DNA of 24,000 nucleotides, from NCBI RefSeq assembly GCF_032017025.1, contig NZ_DALZQO010000003.1, positions 30,208 through 54,207 of the forward strand, written 5' to 3'. Position numbers and translations under genes: made by a program. This DNA is from Hydrogenoanaerobacterium sp. (GTDB taxonomy: Bacteria > Bacillota > Clostridia > Oscillospirales > Ruminococcaceae). Numbering within the stretch: the stretch's first letter is position 1; each line of letters begins with the position of its first letter. The notes under the pieces were generated by a model. The model saw only the letters and a program-made list of their open reading frames with translations. It had not been told where the DNA came from and did no database searches. This document shows, piece after piece, positions 12,375 to 15,443 of this stretch.

Positions 12375-13082
12375 ATGGGTAAACTCAGAGAAGCGGCTGC
12401 AGAGCTGCATGGTGCACAAAAAGAGGGGCTTTTCGAACTGATCAAAAACATGCCGGAACCGATTGAAGAGAAGGTAAGAATTATAAAAAAGAGCGCCGGC
12501 GACATCCTGGTTAGAATGCAGGACACAGCGAAGAACGTGTATATCCTGCTGGAGGGAGACATCAAGGCAATGAACCAGCAGGTATCGGGCGCCGTTTATG
12601 TTTTTGCAACCTTCTCCGCACCCAGCCTTTTCGGCGAATTCGAGGCCTTTTCCCAATGCAGCTACTACAGGGGAACGCTCACCTGTGTGACAAAGTGCAC
12701 ACTCGCGGTAATGCCGACCGAAGCTTATTTGAACTGGATGAGAAAGGACCACGAGGCGCTCTTTCAAAGAACACAGCAGATTACAAAACAGTTGGTAGAT
12801 CAGGCGGGCAGCGAAAGAAACTTTCTTTTCTTTACCGGAAAAGACCGTCTTGTGGCTTTTTTGATATCCTGCTATCAAAAAACACAGGTTAATGGCATGT
12901 GCCATATAAAAGTTACACGCCAGCAGATTGCAGATGAGACAGGCTTTTGTGTAAAAACGGTTCAGCGCGGCTTAAACCAGCTTAAAAGAAAAGGGATGCT
13001 GACCTTTGACCGGCGTGAGATTGTAATAAACCAAGAGCAGTACCGGCAGTTGGACGAGCTTGCTTCAGAAAAAATCAACTAA
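12375..13082 (+). CDS. Crp/Fnr family transcriptional regulator (no FNR-type cysteine cluster)
   Basis: The cNMP-binding-like beta-roll (VYILLEGDIKA ... SLFGEFEAF) is followed by a C-terminal HTH (TRQQIADETGFCVKTVQRGLNQLKRKGML). RBS GGGAGAG. Confidence 0.85.
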   Translation: MGKLREAAAELHGAQKEGLFELIKNMPEPIEEKVRIIKKSAGDILVRMQDTAKNVYILLEGDIKAMNQQVSGAVYVFATFSAPSLFGEFEAFSQCSYYRGTLTCVTKCTLAVMPTEAYLNWMRKDHEALFQRTQQITKQLVDQAGSERNFLFFTGKDRLVAFLISCYQKTQVNGMCHIKVTRQQIADETGFCVKTVQRGLNQLKRKGMLTFDRREIVINQEQYRQLDELASEKIN

Positions 13083-13102
13083 TTCAAAGGGGAGTATGCA
13101 AC

Positions 13103-14602
13103 ATGAGTAACAGAACCTACGATGTGCTTACATCAAAAAAACAAACCTACCGCCAAAAAATTATCGCTTTGGCACGCGAGGCAGAGAATTCTCTGGATGT
13201 CTTAAACCTTCCTGAAAGATTTCGCTACTACTTTGAAACACGCGCACTGTGCGACATGGGAGAAGGCAATGCCCCCTACCGCCCGCGTTACGTTATGGTT
13301 GACTTTGAGAAGTTTTTAAGGCAGGGCAGTAAATTCTTGAAAATTGACCCGCCTAAGGATTTGAACGGGGCACTGACAGCGCTGCAGATTATTTACTACC
13401 ACACACCGTCCATCACAACTATGCCGGTATACTTAGGCAACCTCGACAAGCTGATCGACCCGTTCCTTGACGGCGTAAGCGACGAGGACGCAAAAAAACA
13501 GATCAAAAACTTCTTAAACTACATAGACCGAACCGTTGCAGACGGCTACTGCCATGCAAACCTCGGCCCGGAGGCCACCCGTGCAGGCAGGCTTATCCTT
13601 GAGCTGGAGCAGGAACTGCAAAATGCCGTTCCCAACTTTACTCTCAAGTACGACCCCGAAATTACACCCGATGATTTTGCGGAGCTCGCAATCAAGTGCT
13701 CGCTTGCGTGTTCCAACCCTGCAATCTGCAACGACAAAATGAACCGAGACACATACCCCGGCGGGTATGGAATTTCCTCCTGCTACAATCTGCTTCCTAT
13801 CGGAGGCGGTGCATACACACTTTCCCGCGTGGTTATTCCGCGTCTTGCAAAGCTTTCGAAAGGGATTGACGACTTCCTTGAGAATGTACTGCCCGACGCA
13901 CTGGCTGCACTGGGTGAGTACATGAACGAACGCATTGCATTCCTTGTTGAAAAATCCGGCTACTTTGAGAGCGATTTTATGACACAGGAGGGCCTTGTTG
14001 AAAGAGAAAGATTCGTCGGCATGTATGGTGTTGCCGGCCTTTGCGACGGTGTTAACTACCTGCTGCAAGATAAGGGCCTGCGCTACGGTCACGATGAGGA
14101 AGCAAACCTGCTCGCTGAAAAGATTCTGACAATTATTGATAGTACGGTAAAAGAACTGCCCGCAAAGTACTCTGAAATTGCAGGCGGACACTTTATGCTT
14201 CATGCGCAGGCAGGGCTTTCCGACGATGTCGGTGTAACCTCCGGTGTGAGAATTGTTGTGGGTGACGAGCCGGAAAACATCCTCGACCACCTGCGCCACT
14301 CCACCCGTTACCACCGTTTCTTCCCCACAGGCTGCAGCGATATCTTCCCGTTTGATACAACCGCAAGCAGAAACCCCGCTGCCGTTCTTGATATTGTGAA
14401 AGGCGCGTTTAAGCTGGGTGACCGTTACTGCGCATTCTATGGTTCGGACAGCGACCTTGTCCGCATTACAGGTTACCTTGTAAAGCGCAGTGAGCTTCAA
14501 AAGTACGACAGCGGAGAAGTTGTTCTCCACGATACGGTTCAAAACGGCAGTGCAAACTACAAGCTGAACCGTCTTAACGAAAGAAAGGTAAGGAACGTAT
14601 AA
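13103..14602 (+). CDS. yjjI: YjjI-family glycyl radical enzyme (function unknown)
   Basis: 499 aa with the C-terminal glycyl-radical fingerprint DLVRITGYLV (Gly457, nt 14471-14473). Immediately followed by a dedicated activase. Size and pairing match the E. coli YjjI/YjjW type. RBS AGGGGAG. Confidence 0.85.
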   Translation: MSNRTYDVLTSKKQTYRQKIIALAREAENSLDVLNLPERFRYYFETRALCDMGEGNAPYRPRYVMVDFEKFLRQGSKFLKIDPPKDLNGALTALQIIYYHTPSITTMPVYLGNLDKLIDPFLDGVSDEDAKKQIKNFLNYIDRTVADGYCHANLGPEATRAGRLILELEQELQNAVPNFTLKYDPEITPDDFAELAIKCSLACSNPAICNDKMNRDTYPGGYGISSCYNLLPIGGGAYTLSRVVIPRLAKLSKGIDDFLENVLPDALAALGEYMNERIAFLVEKSGYFESDFMTQEGLVERERFVGMYGVAGLCDGVNYLLQDKGLRYGHDEEANLLAEKILTIIDSTVKELPAKYSEIAGGHFMLHAQAGLSDDVGVTSGVRIVVGDEPENILDHLRHSTRYHRFFPTGCSDIFPFDTTASRNPAAVLDIVKGAFKLGDRYCAFYGSDSDLVRITGYLVKRSELQKYDSGEVVLHDTVQNGSANYKLNRLNERKVRNV

Positions 14603-14603
14603 A

Positions 14604-15443
14604 ATGCTTACGGCTATCGTCAATAAAATACTGCCGACCAGCGTGGTAGACGGGCCGGGGAACCGGGTGTCGATATTCCTACAGGGGTGCAACATTCACT
14701 GTGCCTACTGCCATAACCCCGAAACGCAGCGCCTTTGTGTACATTGCGGCGCCTGTGTGCCGGGGTGCCCCGCACAGGCCTTGGCTATAGAAAATAGAAA
14801 AGTGGTTTGGAACGAGGATAAGTGCATAGACTGTGATGCCTGCATTAAAATCTGCCCCAATTTTTCTTCCCCCAAGGTCAAAGAGATGACCCCGCAGCAG
14901 GTGTATCAAAAAGTTCTGGAAAGCGTGCCCTTTATTAGGGGGATCACGGTATCGGGCGGCGAATGTATGCTGTACCCCGAATTCCTTGCAGAGCTTTTTC
15001 GTATGGTCAAAGCAGAGGGGCTTACCTGCCTGATAGATTCCAACGGAATGGTGGATTTAAGTGCATACCCTGAGCTTGTTGCACTTTGTGACGGCGTTAT
15101 GCTGGATATAAAATCGTGGGATAACGAGGTGTATCGCACTTTGGTAGGCTTTGATAACCTGCCGGTAAAAAAGAACCTTGTGTACCTCTCGCGCAACGAT
15201 AAAATAGAAGAGCTTAGAATTGTCTGCTTGCCGGGCGAAGTGGATGCCGAAGCGGCACTGCAAGGCATTGCACAGACCATAGGACCCGAAAAAACAAAAA
15301 CCACCCGCATCAAACTGATTAAGTTTCGCCCGTTTGGGGTAAAAGGCAGGCTGGCAGAGATGACTGCGCCGGAAAACAGCTATATGCAGATGCTGGAGGC
15401 AAAAGCAGCAGAGCTTGGATTTGAACATGTGATGGTTGTATAA
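14604..15443 (+). CDS. yjjW: YjjW-family glycyl-radical enzyme activating enzyme (radical SAM)
   Basis: DGPGNR motif and CNIHCAYC (CX3CX2C; C29/C33/C36). Two ferredoxin-type motifs, CVHCGACVPGCP and CIDCDACIKICP. GGEC SAM-binding motif. The start lies 1 nt after the yjjI stop. Confidence 0.9.
   Translation: MLTAIVNKILPTSVVDGPGNRVSIFLQGCNIHCAYCHNPETQRLCVHCGACVPGCPAQALAIENRKVVWNEDKCIDCDACIKICPNFSSPKVKEMTPQQVYQKVLESVPFIRGITVSGGECMLYPEFLAELFRMVKAEGLTCLIDSNGMVDLSAYPELVALCDGVMLDIKSWDNEVYRTLVGFDNLPVKKNLVYLSRNDKIEELRIVCLPGEVDAEAALQGIAQTIGPEKTKTTRIKLIKFRPFGVKGRLAEMTAPENSYMQMLEAKAAELGFEHVMVV

Follow-up and report, generated by a model that had tools for sequence, protein, structure and literature searches.

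The window analysed here is a stretch of 24,000 nt of Hydrogenoanaerobacterium sp., and the feature under study, at 12375-15443, is a run of three genes that encode a Crp/Fnr-family regulator (crp-like), a YjjI-family glycyl-radical enzyme (yjjI) and a YjjW-family radical S-adenosylmethionine (SAM) activase (yjjW). We read these genes as a single operon within a conserved anaerobic nucleoside-utilisation cluster, in which a radical enzyme derived from the class III ribonucleotide reductase (RNR) NrdD would act on the ribosyl part of its substrate, and we give this reading a probability of roughly 0.6. The features of the operon are as follows.

12280-12293, no strand assigned: predicted operator, the 14-bp palindrome TGGACATGTGTCCT (family consensus AAAAAGGACAnnTGTCCTTTT), from a palindrome count upstream of crp-yjjI
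12316-12321, plus strand: -10-like hexamer TAGAAT, starting 22 nt after the palindrome, from its conserved spacing (transcription start inferred)
12375-13082, plus strand: crp-like, Crp/Fnr-family transcription factor of 235 amino acids (aa), PF00027 and PF13545
13103-14602, plus strand: yjjI, YjjI-family glycyl-radical enzyme of 499 aa, TIGR04040 and PF11230
13781-13783, plus strand: codon of Cys227, the predicted thiyl-radical cysteine, in SSCYN, from alignment and AlphaFold2 (AF2) model
14471-14473, plus strand: codon of Gly457, the predicted glycyl-radical site, in VRITGYLV (residues 453-460), from alignment and AF2 model
14604-15443, plus strand: yjjW, YjjW-family radical-SAM activase of 279 aa, TIGR04041
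15516-15561, both strands: predicted bidirectional intrinsic terminator hairpin, common to yjjW (plus) and udp (minus), from terminator scan and folding

The three open reading frames (ORFs) are separated by 20 nt (crp-like to yjjI) and 1 nt (yjjI to yjjW). An independent gene call by the Joint Genome Institute (JGI) on the source contig (JGI metagenome 3300011163) gave the same three genes, which confirms the positions and spacings listed in an earlier note on this DNA, made from the letters alone. The terminator that the note had placed downstream was recovered at 15516-15561, where a hairpin of 15 contiguous pairs around a 12-bp G+C core is predicted to serve both yjjW and the convergent udp. 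A folding energy of -34.7 kcal/mol was computed for it (z = -6.75 against shuffles), and none of the 200 shuffles was as stable. An Rfam scan of the whole window found no riboswitch or other RNA family.

YjjI, its radical residues and its activase

The 499-aa protein is almost certainly a member of the YjjI family. It reaches 632.9 bits against TIGR04040 (E 3e-190; cut-off 498.3), with residues 4-497 placed on positions 2-497 of the 497 in the profile, and 674 bits against PF11230 (profile positions 2-485 of 485). In fact, NCBI already names it "YjjI family glycine radical enzyme", and it is an ordinary member of a known family whose reaction is not assigned. The activase scores 387.3 bits against TIGR04041 (cut-off 250.2), and the two family names proposed earlier without any database are therefore backed by matches above the cut-offs of both models.

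We aligned 43 YjjI sequences from Bacillota and Enterobacterales, with identity down to 38%. Cys227 and Gly457 are invariant in all of them, which bears out the glycyl-radical fingerprint and the catalytic residues picked out in the earlier note, and so are S226 and N229 (S226-C227-x-N229) as well as R454 and T456 (R454-x-T456-G457), among about 75 invariant columns. In the AF2 model of YjjI (pLDDT 92.4, pTM 0.92), each of the two predicted radical residues sits at the tip of a beta-hairpin, Cys227 between strands 222-225 and 229-232, and Gly457 between strands 452-454 and 459-461. Moreover, among 1.84 billion proteins the family has only about 20 full-length representatives at 50% identity; a family so small and tight suggests, as far as its sequences can tell, a single conserved function.

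Published work points to an anaerobic role of YjjI. Gly465 of E. coli YjjI, which corresponds to Gly457 here, was labelled in live cells by a radical-trapping probe (bioRxiv 10.64898/2026.08.13.742689), yjjIW is activated by FNR in E. coli (PMC2634741), and yjjI is induced 4.3-fold anaerobically in Yersinia intermedia (PMC3792023). The literature that we searched, to August 2026, still calls YjjI uncharacterised, in line with the earlier note. The contrast in size drawn there holds in part: YjjI is indeed smaller than the PFL-type enzymes that were listed, while the NrdD-type enzymes (about 600-700 aa), which are closer in size, had been left out.

YjjW carries the radical-SAM motif C29-X3-C33-X2-C36 (coding positions 14688-14711) and two ferredoxin-type CX2CX2CX3CP motifs, C45-C55 (14736-14768) and C74-C84 (14823-14855). 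These motifs can be read in the sequence as previously described, and the TIGR04041 match agrees with their assignment to an activase. For the distribution of both proteins we collected 82 YjjI loci, namely 80 genome loci (one per species, 55-74% identical) fetched from Bacillota, Bacteroidales and one Spirochaete bin, together with the window and E. coli. YjjW is encoded beside YjjI in 78 of the 82 loci, and both ferredoxin motifs are found in 62 of these 78 homologues.

The other 16 YjjW proteins have neither ferredoxin motif and keep the radical-SAM CX3CX2C; they come from Bacteroidales and some Tissierellia, and nearly all are about 239 aa long (loci L046, L048, L054-L056, L058-L060, L062-L064, L021-L023 and L033). 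Two irregular yjjI genes were also seen. In Aeromonas caviae (L088) yjjI is split into two ORFs, 9749-10204 and 10286-11377, owing to a frameshift, pseudogenisation or a sequencing error, and yjjW is intact. A 574-aa protein that joins YjjI to a DeoC domain (P0124), on a single 2.9-kb contig, is probably a mis-assembly or a gene-calling artefact, because yjjI and deoC are divergent in E. coli.

Gene neighbourhood of YjjI

All ORFs of the 82 loci were clustered without prior labels, and the recurrent families were then named by curated models. Genes for nucleoside transport or catabolism (BMP-type ATP-binding cassette (ABC) importer, Udp/DeoD, Cdd, Pdp, DeoB, DeoC or NupG) were found in 56 of the 82 loci, and in 39 of the 50 loci that have at least 5 kb on both sides, against a chance expectation of about 3-7%, which is our own estimate from the number of such loci in an E. 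coli-like genome and not a computed control. The recurrent families are distributed as follows.

BMP binding protein, ABC ATPase and permeases: 44/82 loci each, the permeases with two copies per locus
Udp/DeoD-type phosphorylase: 28/82 loci, 34 genes (23 Udp-type, 11 DeoD-type)
Cytidine deaminase (Cdd): 23/82 loci
GntR: 15/82 loci
YczE-like protein: 13/82 loci, always between udp and the BMP gene
DeoC: 12/82 loci
PF00756 esterase: 11/82 loci, its position within the cluster varying
DeoB: 8/82 loci
Kinase of the PfkB type fused to a helix-turn-helix (HTH): 7/82 loci
Pyrimidine-nucleoside phosphorylase: 5/82 loci
NupG: 3/82 loci

The linkage of YjjIW to nucleoside genes is kept through more than a dozen different gene junctions, and this variety of arrangements is a stronger argument for the linkage than the locus counts. 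The orders met are given below, with the sign < or > for the direction of a gene where it matters.

Oscillospiraceae-type: Udp< YczE BMP-ABC GntR [Crp] YjjIW
Tissierellia: Crp YjjIW BMP-ABC Cdd Pdp
Hungatella and Lacrimispora: YjjIW BMP-ABC Crp Udp DeoD [DeoC] Cdd
Anaerotruncus: kinase< ABC< BMP< Cdd< Crp> YjjIW
Faecalispora-type: Crp YjjIW LacI DeoB DeoD BMP-ABC DeoC Cdd
Peptoniphilaceae: YjjIW Cdd BMP-ABC Udp
Further type: BMP-ABC YjjIW

Moreover, three non-homologous families of nucleoside importers directly abut YjjIW. The first is BMP-ABC, in Clostridia and Tissierellia; the second is NupG, in the Neobacillus order Crp-YjjI-YjjW-NupG (PF03825, 537 bits); and the third is NupC, in Edwardsiella piscicida (deoDBAC< >YjjIW <NupC) and in Moellerella and a related genome (NupC>YjjI>YjjW). 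For H. influenzae, a 3.1-kb region that holds YjjI together with a radical SAM protein and a NupC-type transporter has been reported (PMC5609409), and HI0519, which lies beside HI0520/HI0521, is nupC (PMC5476696). In E. coli, yjjW-yjjI (b4379-b4380) is divergent from deoCABD across a 257-bp spacer, which confirms the adjacency given in the earlier note. Its wider proposal, a nucleoside neighbourhood common to a Firmicute and a Proteobacterium, is upheld by the 56 loci, the many gene orders and the three importer families, with the restriction that the linkage is confined to certain lineages. None of the three results that the note had listed as refuting its reading was obtained.

In the window itself, the genes downstream of the operon belong to the same cluster.

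15611-16393, minus strand: udp, uridine phosphorylase, convergent with yjjW (TIGR01718, 297.5 bits, cut-off 280.3)
16684-17373, plus strand: YczE/YitT-like membrane protein, a conserved cluster member (NF052291, PF02588)
17441-18577, plus strand: BMP/PnrA-type substrate-binding protein of an ABC importer (PF02608, 171.5 bits, domain threshold passed)
18731-20287, plus strand: ATPase of the ABC importer with two ABC domains (curated-model match)
20211-21395 and 21385-22323, plus strand: two ABC permease genes (PF02653)
22379-23095, plus strand: GntR/FCD-family regulator closing the transporter operon (family models and JGI annotation)
23157-23945, minus strand: PF00756 esterase, conserved in the Oscillospiraceae-type cluster (Pfam)

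Nucleosides are the probable cargo of the BMP-ABC importer, judging by the genes for Udp, Cdd, Pdp, DeoB and DeoC that share its clusters. The context had been described earlier as a module convergent with uridine phosphorylase and next to a BMP-type importer with its own GntR regulator; the convergent udp, the importer and the GntR/FCD regulator are all present, while the YczE/YitT-like gene at 16684-17373 separates udp from the BMP gene. The crp-yjjIW block lies on the udp side in the window, and in the nearest relatives (L004, L012 and L014) it stands behind GntR, where the transporter operon has its 3' end, GntR being directly upstream of crp-yjjI. The linkage has therefore been kept through a rearrangement. 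The label "orphan" that had been given to the module is a misnomer, because the module belongs to a conserved cluster, and we reject the idea of an isolated module.

Two further observations concern the loci themselves. Hungatella hathewayi DSM 13479 (NZ_CP102274.1) has two complete YjjI-YjjW/Crp/BMP-ABC loci (L025 and L039), one with Cdd and Pdp as partners and the other with Udp, a DeoD-type phosphorylase, DeoC and Cdd, which suggests substrate-specialised paralogous systems. In E. coli K-12, the gap between yjjV and yjjW (L002, 11262-11680) holds four tandem repeats of about 98 bp that resemble repetitive extragenic palindromes (REP) or bacterial interspersed mosaic elements (BIME), and no remnant of nupC was detectable in this gap, at the place that corresponds to nupC in Edwardsiella.

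Relationship of YjjI to NrdD

When the AF2 model of YjjI was compared with the PDB by Foldseek, the best 27 matches were all class III RNR NrdD (best E 5.8e-17, TMq 0.77, about 15% identity), and PFL-type enzymes ranked 28 and below. The relationship is distant in sequence: a profile search of the PDB with the 43 YjjI sequences gave no match even at E <= 10, and YjjI reaches 20.5 bits against the Pfam family NRDD (PF13597), below the gathering threshold of 26.2. YjjI was also aligned, profile against profile, with five NrdDs (numbering of the T4-type enzyme; probability 78%, E 1.9e-5). This alignment places Cys227 on the finger-loop thiyl Cys290 of T4 NrdD, and it places the reducing bottom-face Cys79 on the invariant Tyr63 of YjjI. 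The register there has L72/L88 and G75/G91 as its anchors, and the confidence is low at that column of this 78%-probability alignment. NrdD Asn311 stands opposite a gap in YjjI.

No cysteine besides Cys227 is invariant among the 43 sequences. The zinc-ribbon CX2C...CX2C is absent, a segment of about 24 residues being missing relative to NrdD, and there is no ATP cone. On the model and the alignments, YjjI is thus NrdD-like in its predicted fold and is not an NrdD, because the Pfam NRDD score is below threshold and the second cysteine, the zinc ribbon and the ATP cone are missing.

The Crp-like regulator and its predicted operator

The regulator contains a cNMP-binding domain (PF00027, 45.2 bits) and HTH_Crp_2 (PF13545, 37.8 bits), both above cut-off, and falls below every NCBIfam equivalog cut-off (CRP 47.7 bits against 266, FNR 24.7 against 228). 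Its N-terminus has no cysteines, and only Cys108 is conserved among 39 relatives, so that the earlier description as a Crp/Fnr-type regulator lacking the FNR cysteine cluster applies. At the position of the cAMP-binding Arg82 of CRP, the family has a conserved Tyr; its recognition helix reads x-K-T-V-N/Q-R. A cAMP receptor or an oxygen-sensing Fnr was considered and rejected, since the scores lie far below those equivalogs and both Arg82 and the cysteine cluster are missing.

The Crp-like gene is present in 39 of the 82 YjjI loci, and the most frequent inverted repeat upstream of crp-yjjI is AGGACA-NN-TGTCCT. With at most one mismatch, 34 such sites (15 perfect, 19 with one mismatch) occur in the YjjI loci, which amount to 1.41 Mb, whereas shuffled sequence gave 2.6 +/- 1.6. 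About 31 of these sites are found 34-112 nt upstream of crp, or upstream of yjjI in clusters that have crp at another place. In the window, TGGACATGTGTCCT at 12280-12293 is the only site with two or fewer mismatches. In 31 of 33 aligned loci a -10-like hexamer TAnnnT begins 22-23 nt downstream of the 14-mer, and this fixed spacing puts the centre of the palindrome at about -41.5 from the putative start, which is the geometry of class II activators. Judged from sequence, the predicted operator therefore has the class II geometry of Crp/Fnr-type activators, the position of the start being inferred. Where crp is the first gene behind the palindrome, positive autoregulation is implied. In Hungatella-type clusters the palindrome promoter precedes yjjIW, the importer, crp, phosphorylases and cdd. 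By the palindrome search the regulon appears limited to the yjjI operon, and this operator and promoter architecture of a Crp-family activator is previously undescribed in the literature that we searched. The dedicated Crp-type switch that had been postulated gains support from a conserved predicted operator at a fixed promoter position.

The best match of a promoter scan, at 12280-12308 (TGGACA-17-TAAAAT), was discarded because it takes the palindrome itself for a -35 and because TAGAAT at 12316-12321 is the hexamer that the loci have in common. Sites of the FNR, CRP or YjjI-box type were sought in the spacer between yjjI and deoC of E. coli and in front of the yjjI genes of other Proteobacteria, with no convincing result. 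Haliovirga (Fusobacteriota) has a divergent Crp-like gene next to yjjIW and, upstream, a related TGACAtaTGTCA palindrome, the only such case in that search. One locus (L005) has a perfect Crp-box 100 nt upstream of the PF00756 esterase.

Proposed mechanism and the question of reduction

A nucleoside-derived substrate for YjjI seems likely to us. In the mechanism that we propose, the Crp-family protein, together with a small ligand, would bind the predicted palindrome and activate its own operon as a class II activator. YjjW would cleave S-adenosylmethionine and abstract a hydrogen from Gly457 of YjjI, the radical would pass on to Cys227, and Cys227 would abstract a hydrogen from the ribosyl ring of the substrate, which may be either a nucleoside imported by BMP-ABC or a pentose phosphate released by Udp, DeoD or Pdp. 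Since the clusters include phosphorylases of the uridine type as well as of the purine type, the common denominator would be the shared sugar rather than one base. The chemistry would probably open as in RNR, with attack at C3' and loss of the 2'-hydroxyl, and the reaction may be completed as a redox-neutral elimination or cleavage of the dehydratase or lyase type. Such an outcome is favoured over formate- or thioredoxin-driven reduction because YjjI is without the second cysteine and the zinc ribbon of NrdD; as a specific assignment, the elimination chemistry is rather doubtful.

The main rival to elimination is a true reductase that feeds DeoC. YjjI would then be a stripped-down class III RNR working at the level of nucleosides or pentose phosphates and turning ribosyl into 2-deoxyribosyl, either for salvage or for the DeoC aldolase route to glyceraldehyde-3-P and acetaldehyde. 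The NrdD-like fold and the aligned thiyl cysteine suit a reductase, and so do DeoC in 12 loci, DeoB in 8, the full deo sets beside YjjIW in E. coli, Edwardsiella and the Faecalispora-type clusters, and the pyrimidine-nucleoside phosphorylase, a deoxynucleoside-handling enzyme, in Tissierellia and Hungatella clusters. However, an invariant Tyr stands opposite the bottom-face cysteine of NrdD in the alignment, Cys227 is the sole invariant cysteine, the zinc ribbon is absent, no thioredoxin, glutaredoxin or formate-supplying gene recurs in the YjjI clusters, and DeoC is far rarer than the transporter, Udp or Cdd. We consider a reductase improbable.

Limits of the nucleoside link

Several observations weigh against an enzyme of NrdD descent that acts on nucleosides. 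The nearest NCBIfam model of the BMP protein, itself below cut-off, is a putative B6 transporter, and BMP-type binding proteins are not all nucleoside-specific, some importing riboflavin. In 13 Bacteroidales loci nucleoside genes are missing within 10 kb of YjjIW, except for DeoC in two of them, at a distance of about 7 kb, and they are missing over the same 10 kb in Cytobacillus and B. massiliigorillae. The same is true of the plasmid and chromid records of Aeromonas, Proteus, Microbulbifer, Haliovirga and one Chloroflexota bacterium, of Providencia, and of Vibrio, likewise a plasmid or chromid record, which has only a yjjG homologue 6.5 kb away. A second pass through the unlinked loci for nucleoside genes missed by the clustering found none, and the nucleoside link is lineage-restricted. 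An OPT-family transporter (PF03169) adjoins YjjIW in Paludibacteraceae and one enterobacterium, and part of the adjacency to deo genes among Enterobacterales may be inherited synteny. On the structural side, the alignment of the C-terminal third of YjjI with the NrdD profile is not significant (probability 1%), the comparison there being limited to the glycine loop and the missing zinc ribbon, and the Tyr63 column is the low-confidence one given above. In a study of co-expression, yjjI of E. coli grouped with nitrate and nitrite genes (PMC3228777). Finally, the searched literature (full text, to August 2026) holds no functional or biochemical study of the YjjI/YjjW family.

In a second rival, the neighbourhood would reflect co-regulation or inherited synteny only and the substrate of YjjI would be unrelated to nucleosides, for example a compound imported by OPT-type transporters or one of nitrogen- or nitrate-linked metabolism, a role that has been proposed from co-expression in E. 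coli and Salmonella. The clustering of yjjI with narG-type genes in expression data (PMC3228777), its activation by FNR (PMC2634741), the many lineages that have YjjIW and no nearby nucleoside gene, and the recurrence of OPT all speak for it; moreover, the 80 genome loci are not independent, because they are the closest relatives of the window protein (55-74% identity). It is opposed by the linkage through more than a dozen distinct junctions, by three non-homologous importer families across Clostridia, Bacilli, Enterobacterales and Pasteurellales, by the placing of importer and YjjIW behind a single Crp-box promoter in several architectures, and by a fold that is that of a ribose-acting enzyme. 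Taken together, the probability of an unrelated substrate appears low to us.

As for a released base or a modified nucleoside as substrate (uracil, cytosine, pseudouridine, a 2'-O-methyl or other RNA-turnover nucleoside) in place of the ordinary ribosyl unit, the pyrimidine bias (Cdd in 23 loci, Udp-type phosphorylase in 23), the HTH-fused PfkB kinase resembling pseudouridine kinase in 7 clusters and the minimal Neobacillus operon of importer, enzyme, activase and regulator are compatible with it, but DeoD-type purine phosphorylases in 11 clusters, an NrdD-like fold that argues for sugar chemistry, and the lack of any pseudouridine glycosidase or pyrimidine-reduction gene among the recurrent neighbours make it very improbable.

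The OPT transporters were located as follows. In three Paludibacteraceae they lie directly downstream of YjjW (L046, 5656-7530; L048, 11861-13792; L058, 12332-14227), and in an enterobacterial contig the transporter is divergent from YjjI (L098, 2806-4953); it is a recurrent neighbour unrelated to nucleosides.

Significance

Few glycyl-radical enzymes of E. coli still have no assigned reaction, and YjjI is among these. The ribose-acting fold, the company of nucleoside genes and the dedicated activator with its conserved operator geometry narrow the search for its substrate, and what is new here is the relationship to NrdD, the convergence of three importer families on YjjIW and the conserved operator and promoter architecture. 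The outcome is a short list of substrates and a regulator whose ligand could reveal a pathway intermediate, and with E. coli, Haemophilus, Neobacillus and Hungatella as tractable organisms the old question of YjjI function is now directly testable.

Tentatively, and with more doubt than belief, we propose the following in full. YjjI would be a catabolic offshoot of anaerobic RNR that performs RNR-type chemistry (abstraction of the C3' hydrogen, loss of the 2'-hydroxyl) on free nucleosides or pentose phosphates and so opens an undescribed anaerobic route for ribosyl carbon, under a Crp-family activator with AGGACA-NN-TGTCCT at -41.5. If this is true, glycyl-radical enzymes would gain a new reaction class, and a new anaerobic route for the carbon of nucleosides would be known from bacteria of gut and sediment.

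Other features of the window

Upstream of the operon, a 72-aa acidic ORF at 11901-12119 (minus strand), a JGI-called gene with no Pfam match, lies directly upstream of the crp-yjjIW promoter region and is divergent from it. Next to it is a 78-aa HMA-domain protein at 11587-11823 (minus strand; PF00403 in the JGI annotation), also divergent from the region of the crp-like gene, which has GTKSNQS where the CxxC metal-binding motif is usual. Farther upstream, a G+C-rich hairpin of 12 pairs at 11092-11120 stands just after a flotillin-like gene (9638-11080) and has a terminator score on both strands. A 143-aa ORF at 11090-11521, which overlaps this hairpin and has no family match, is unlikely to be a gene; in its place the JGI annotation has a gene of 90 aa on the other strand. 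An MBOAT (DltB-like) and DHHW protein pair at 5371-7876 and a DUF1846 protein on the opposite strand at 7912-9396 are unrelated to the operon.

Comparison with known systems

The closest known counterpart is YjjI/YjjW of E. coli K-12 (b4380/b4379), whose YjjI is 40-41% identical to that of the window over 499 aa. The two systems share the invariant SCYN cysteine loop and the RxTGY glycine loop, an adjacent activase with CX3CX2C and two ferredoxin motifs, and a location beside nucleoside catabolism genes. They differ in their neighbours, which are deoCABD in E. coli and the BMP-ABC importer and udp in the window, and in regulation: E. coli has no dedicated Crp-family gene, whereas the window has its own regulator and a predicted palindromic operator.

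The deoCABD, udp, cdd, nupC and nupG loci of E. coli (the CytR/DeoR regulon) share with the YjjI clusters, by curated models, the enzyme set of Udp, DeoD-type phosphorylase, Pdp/DeoA, DeoB, DeoC, Cdd and an importer. BMP-type nucleoside ABC importers are represented by PnrA, RnsBACD and NupNOPQ. To our knowledge, no described locus for nucleoside uptake or catabolism includes a glycyl-radical enzyme as a functional member. Unlike these described loci, the clusters studied here hold YjjIW in an operon-like arrangement with nucleoside genes.

With class III RNR, YjjI has in common the C-terminal RxxGYL glycine loop and the predicted activation by a radical-SAM protein. It is 100-200 aa shorter than NrdD and has none of the four zinc-ribbon cysteines of the latter, and YjjW, unlike NrdG, has two extra ferredoxin-type clusters. 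After TIGR04041, the next-best matches of YjjW are in the PFLE/PFLC-type group (T4HPD activase 148 bits, TIGR02494 147 bits). The PFL-type eliminases and lyases (glycerol/propanediol dehydratase, HypD, CutC and PflD) resemble YjjI in having a single catalytic cysteine and a glycine loop, and redox-neutral elimination is their type of chemistry. However, they are 750-850 aa long and structurally further from YjjI than NrdD is, and the window YjjI does not reach the PFL-type model PF02901.

The regulator resembles the class II activators of the Crp/Fnr family (PrfA, CRP and FNR) in its cNMP-binding-like domain and C-terminal HTH. The 14-bp PrfA box of Listeria, tTAACAnnTGTtAa, and the predicted operator of the window are both 6-N2-6 palindromes with an ACAnnTGT core, centred about 41.5 bp upstream of the putative start. 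The consensus half-site of the predicted operator, AGGACA, differs from those of the PrfA, CRP and FNR sites.

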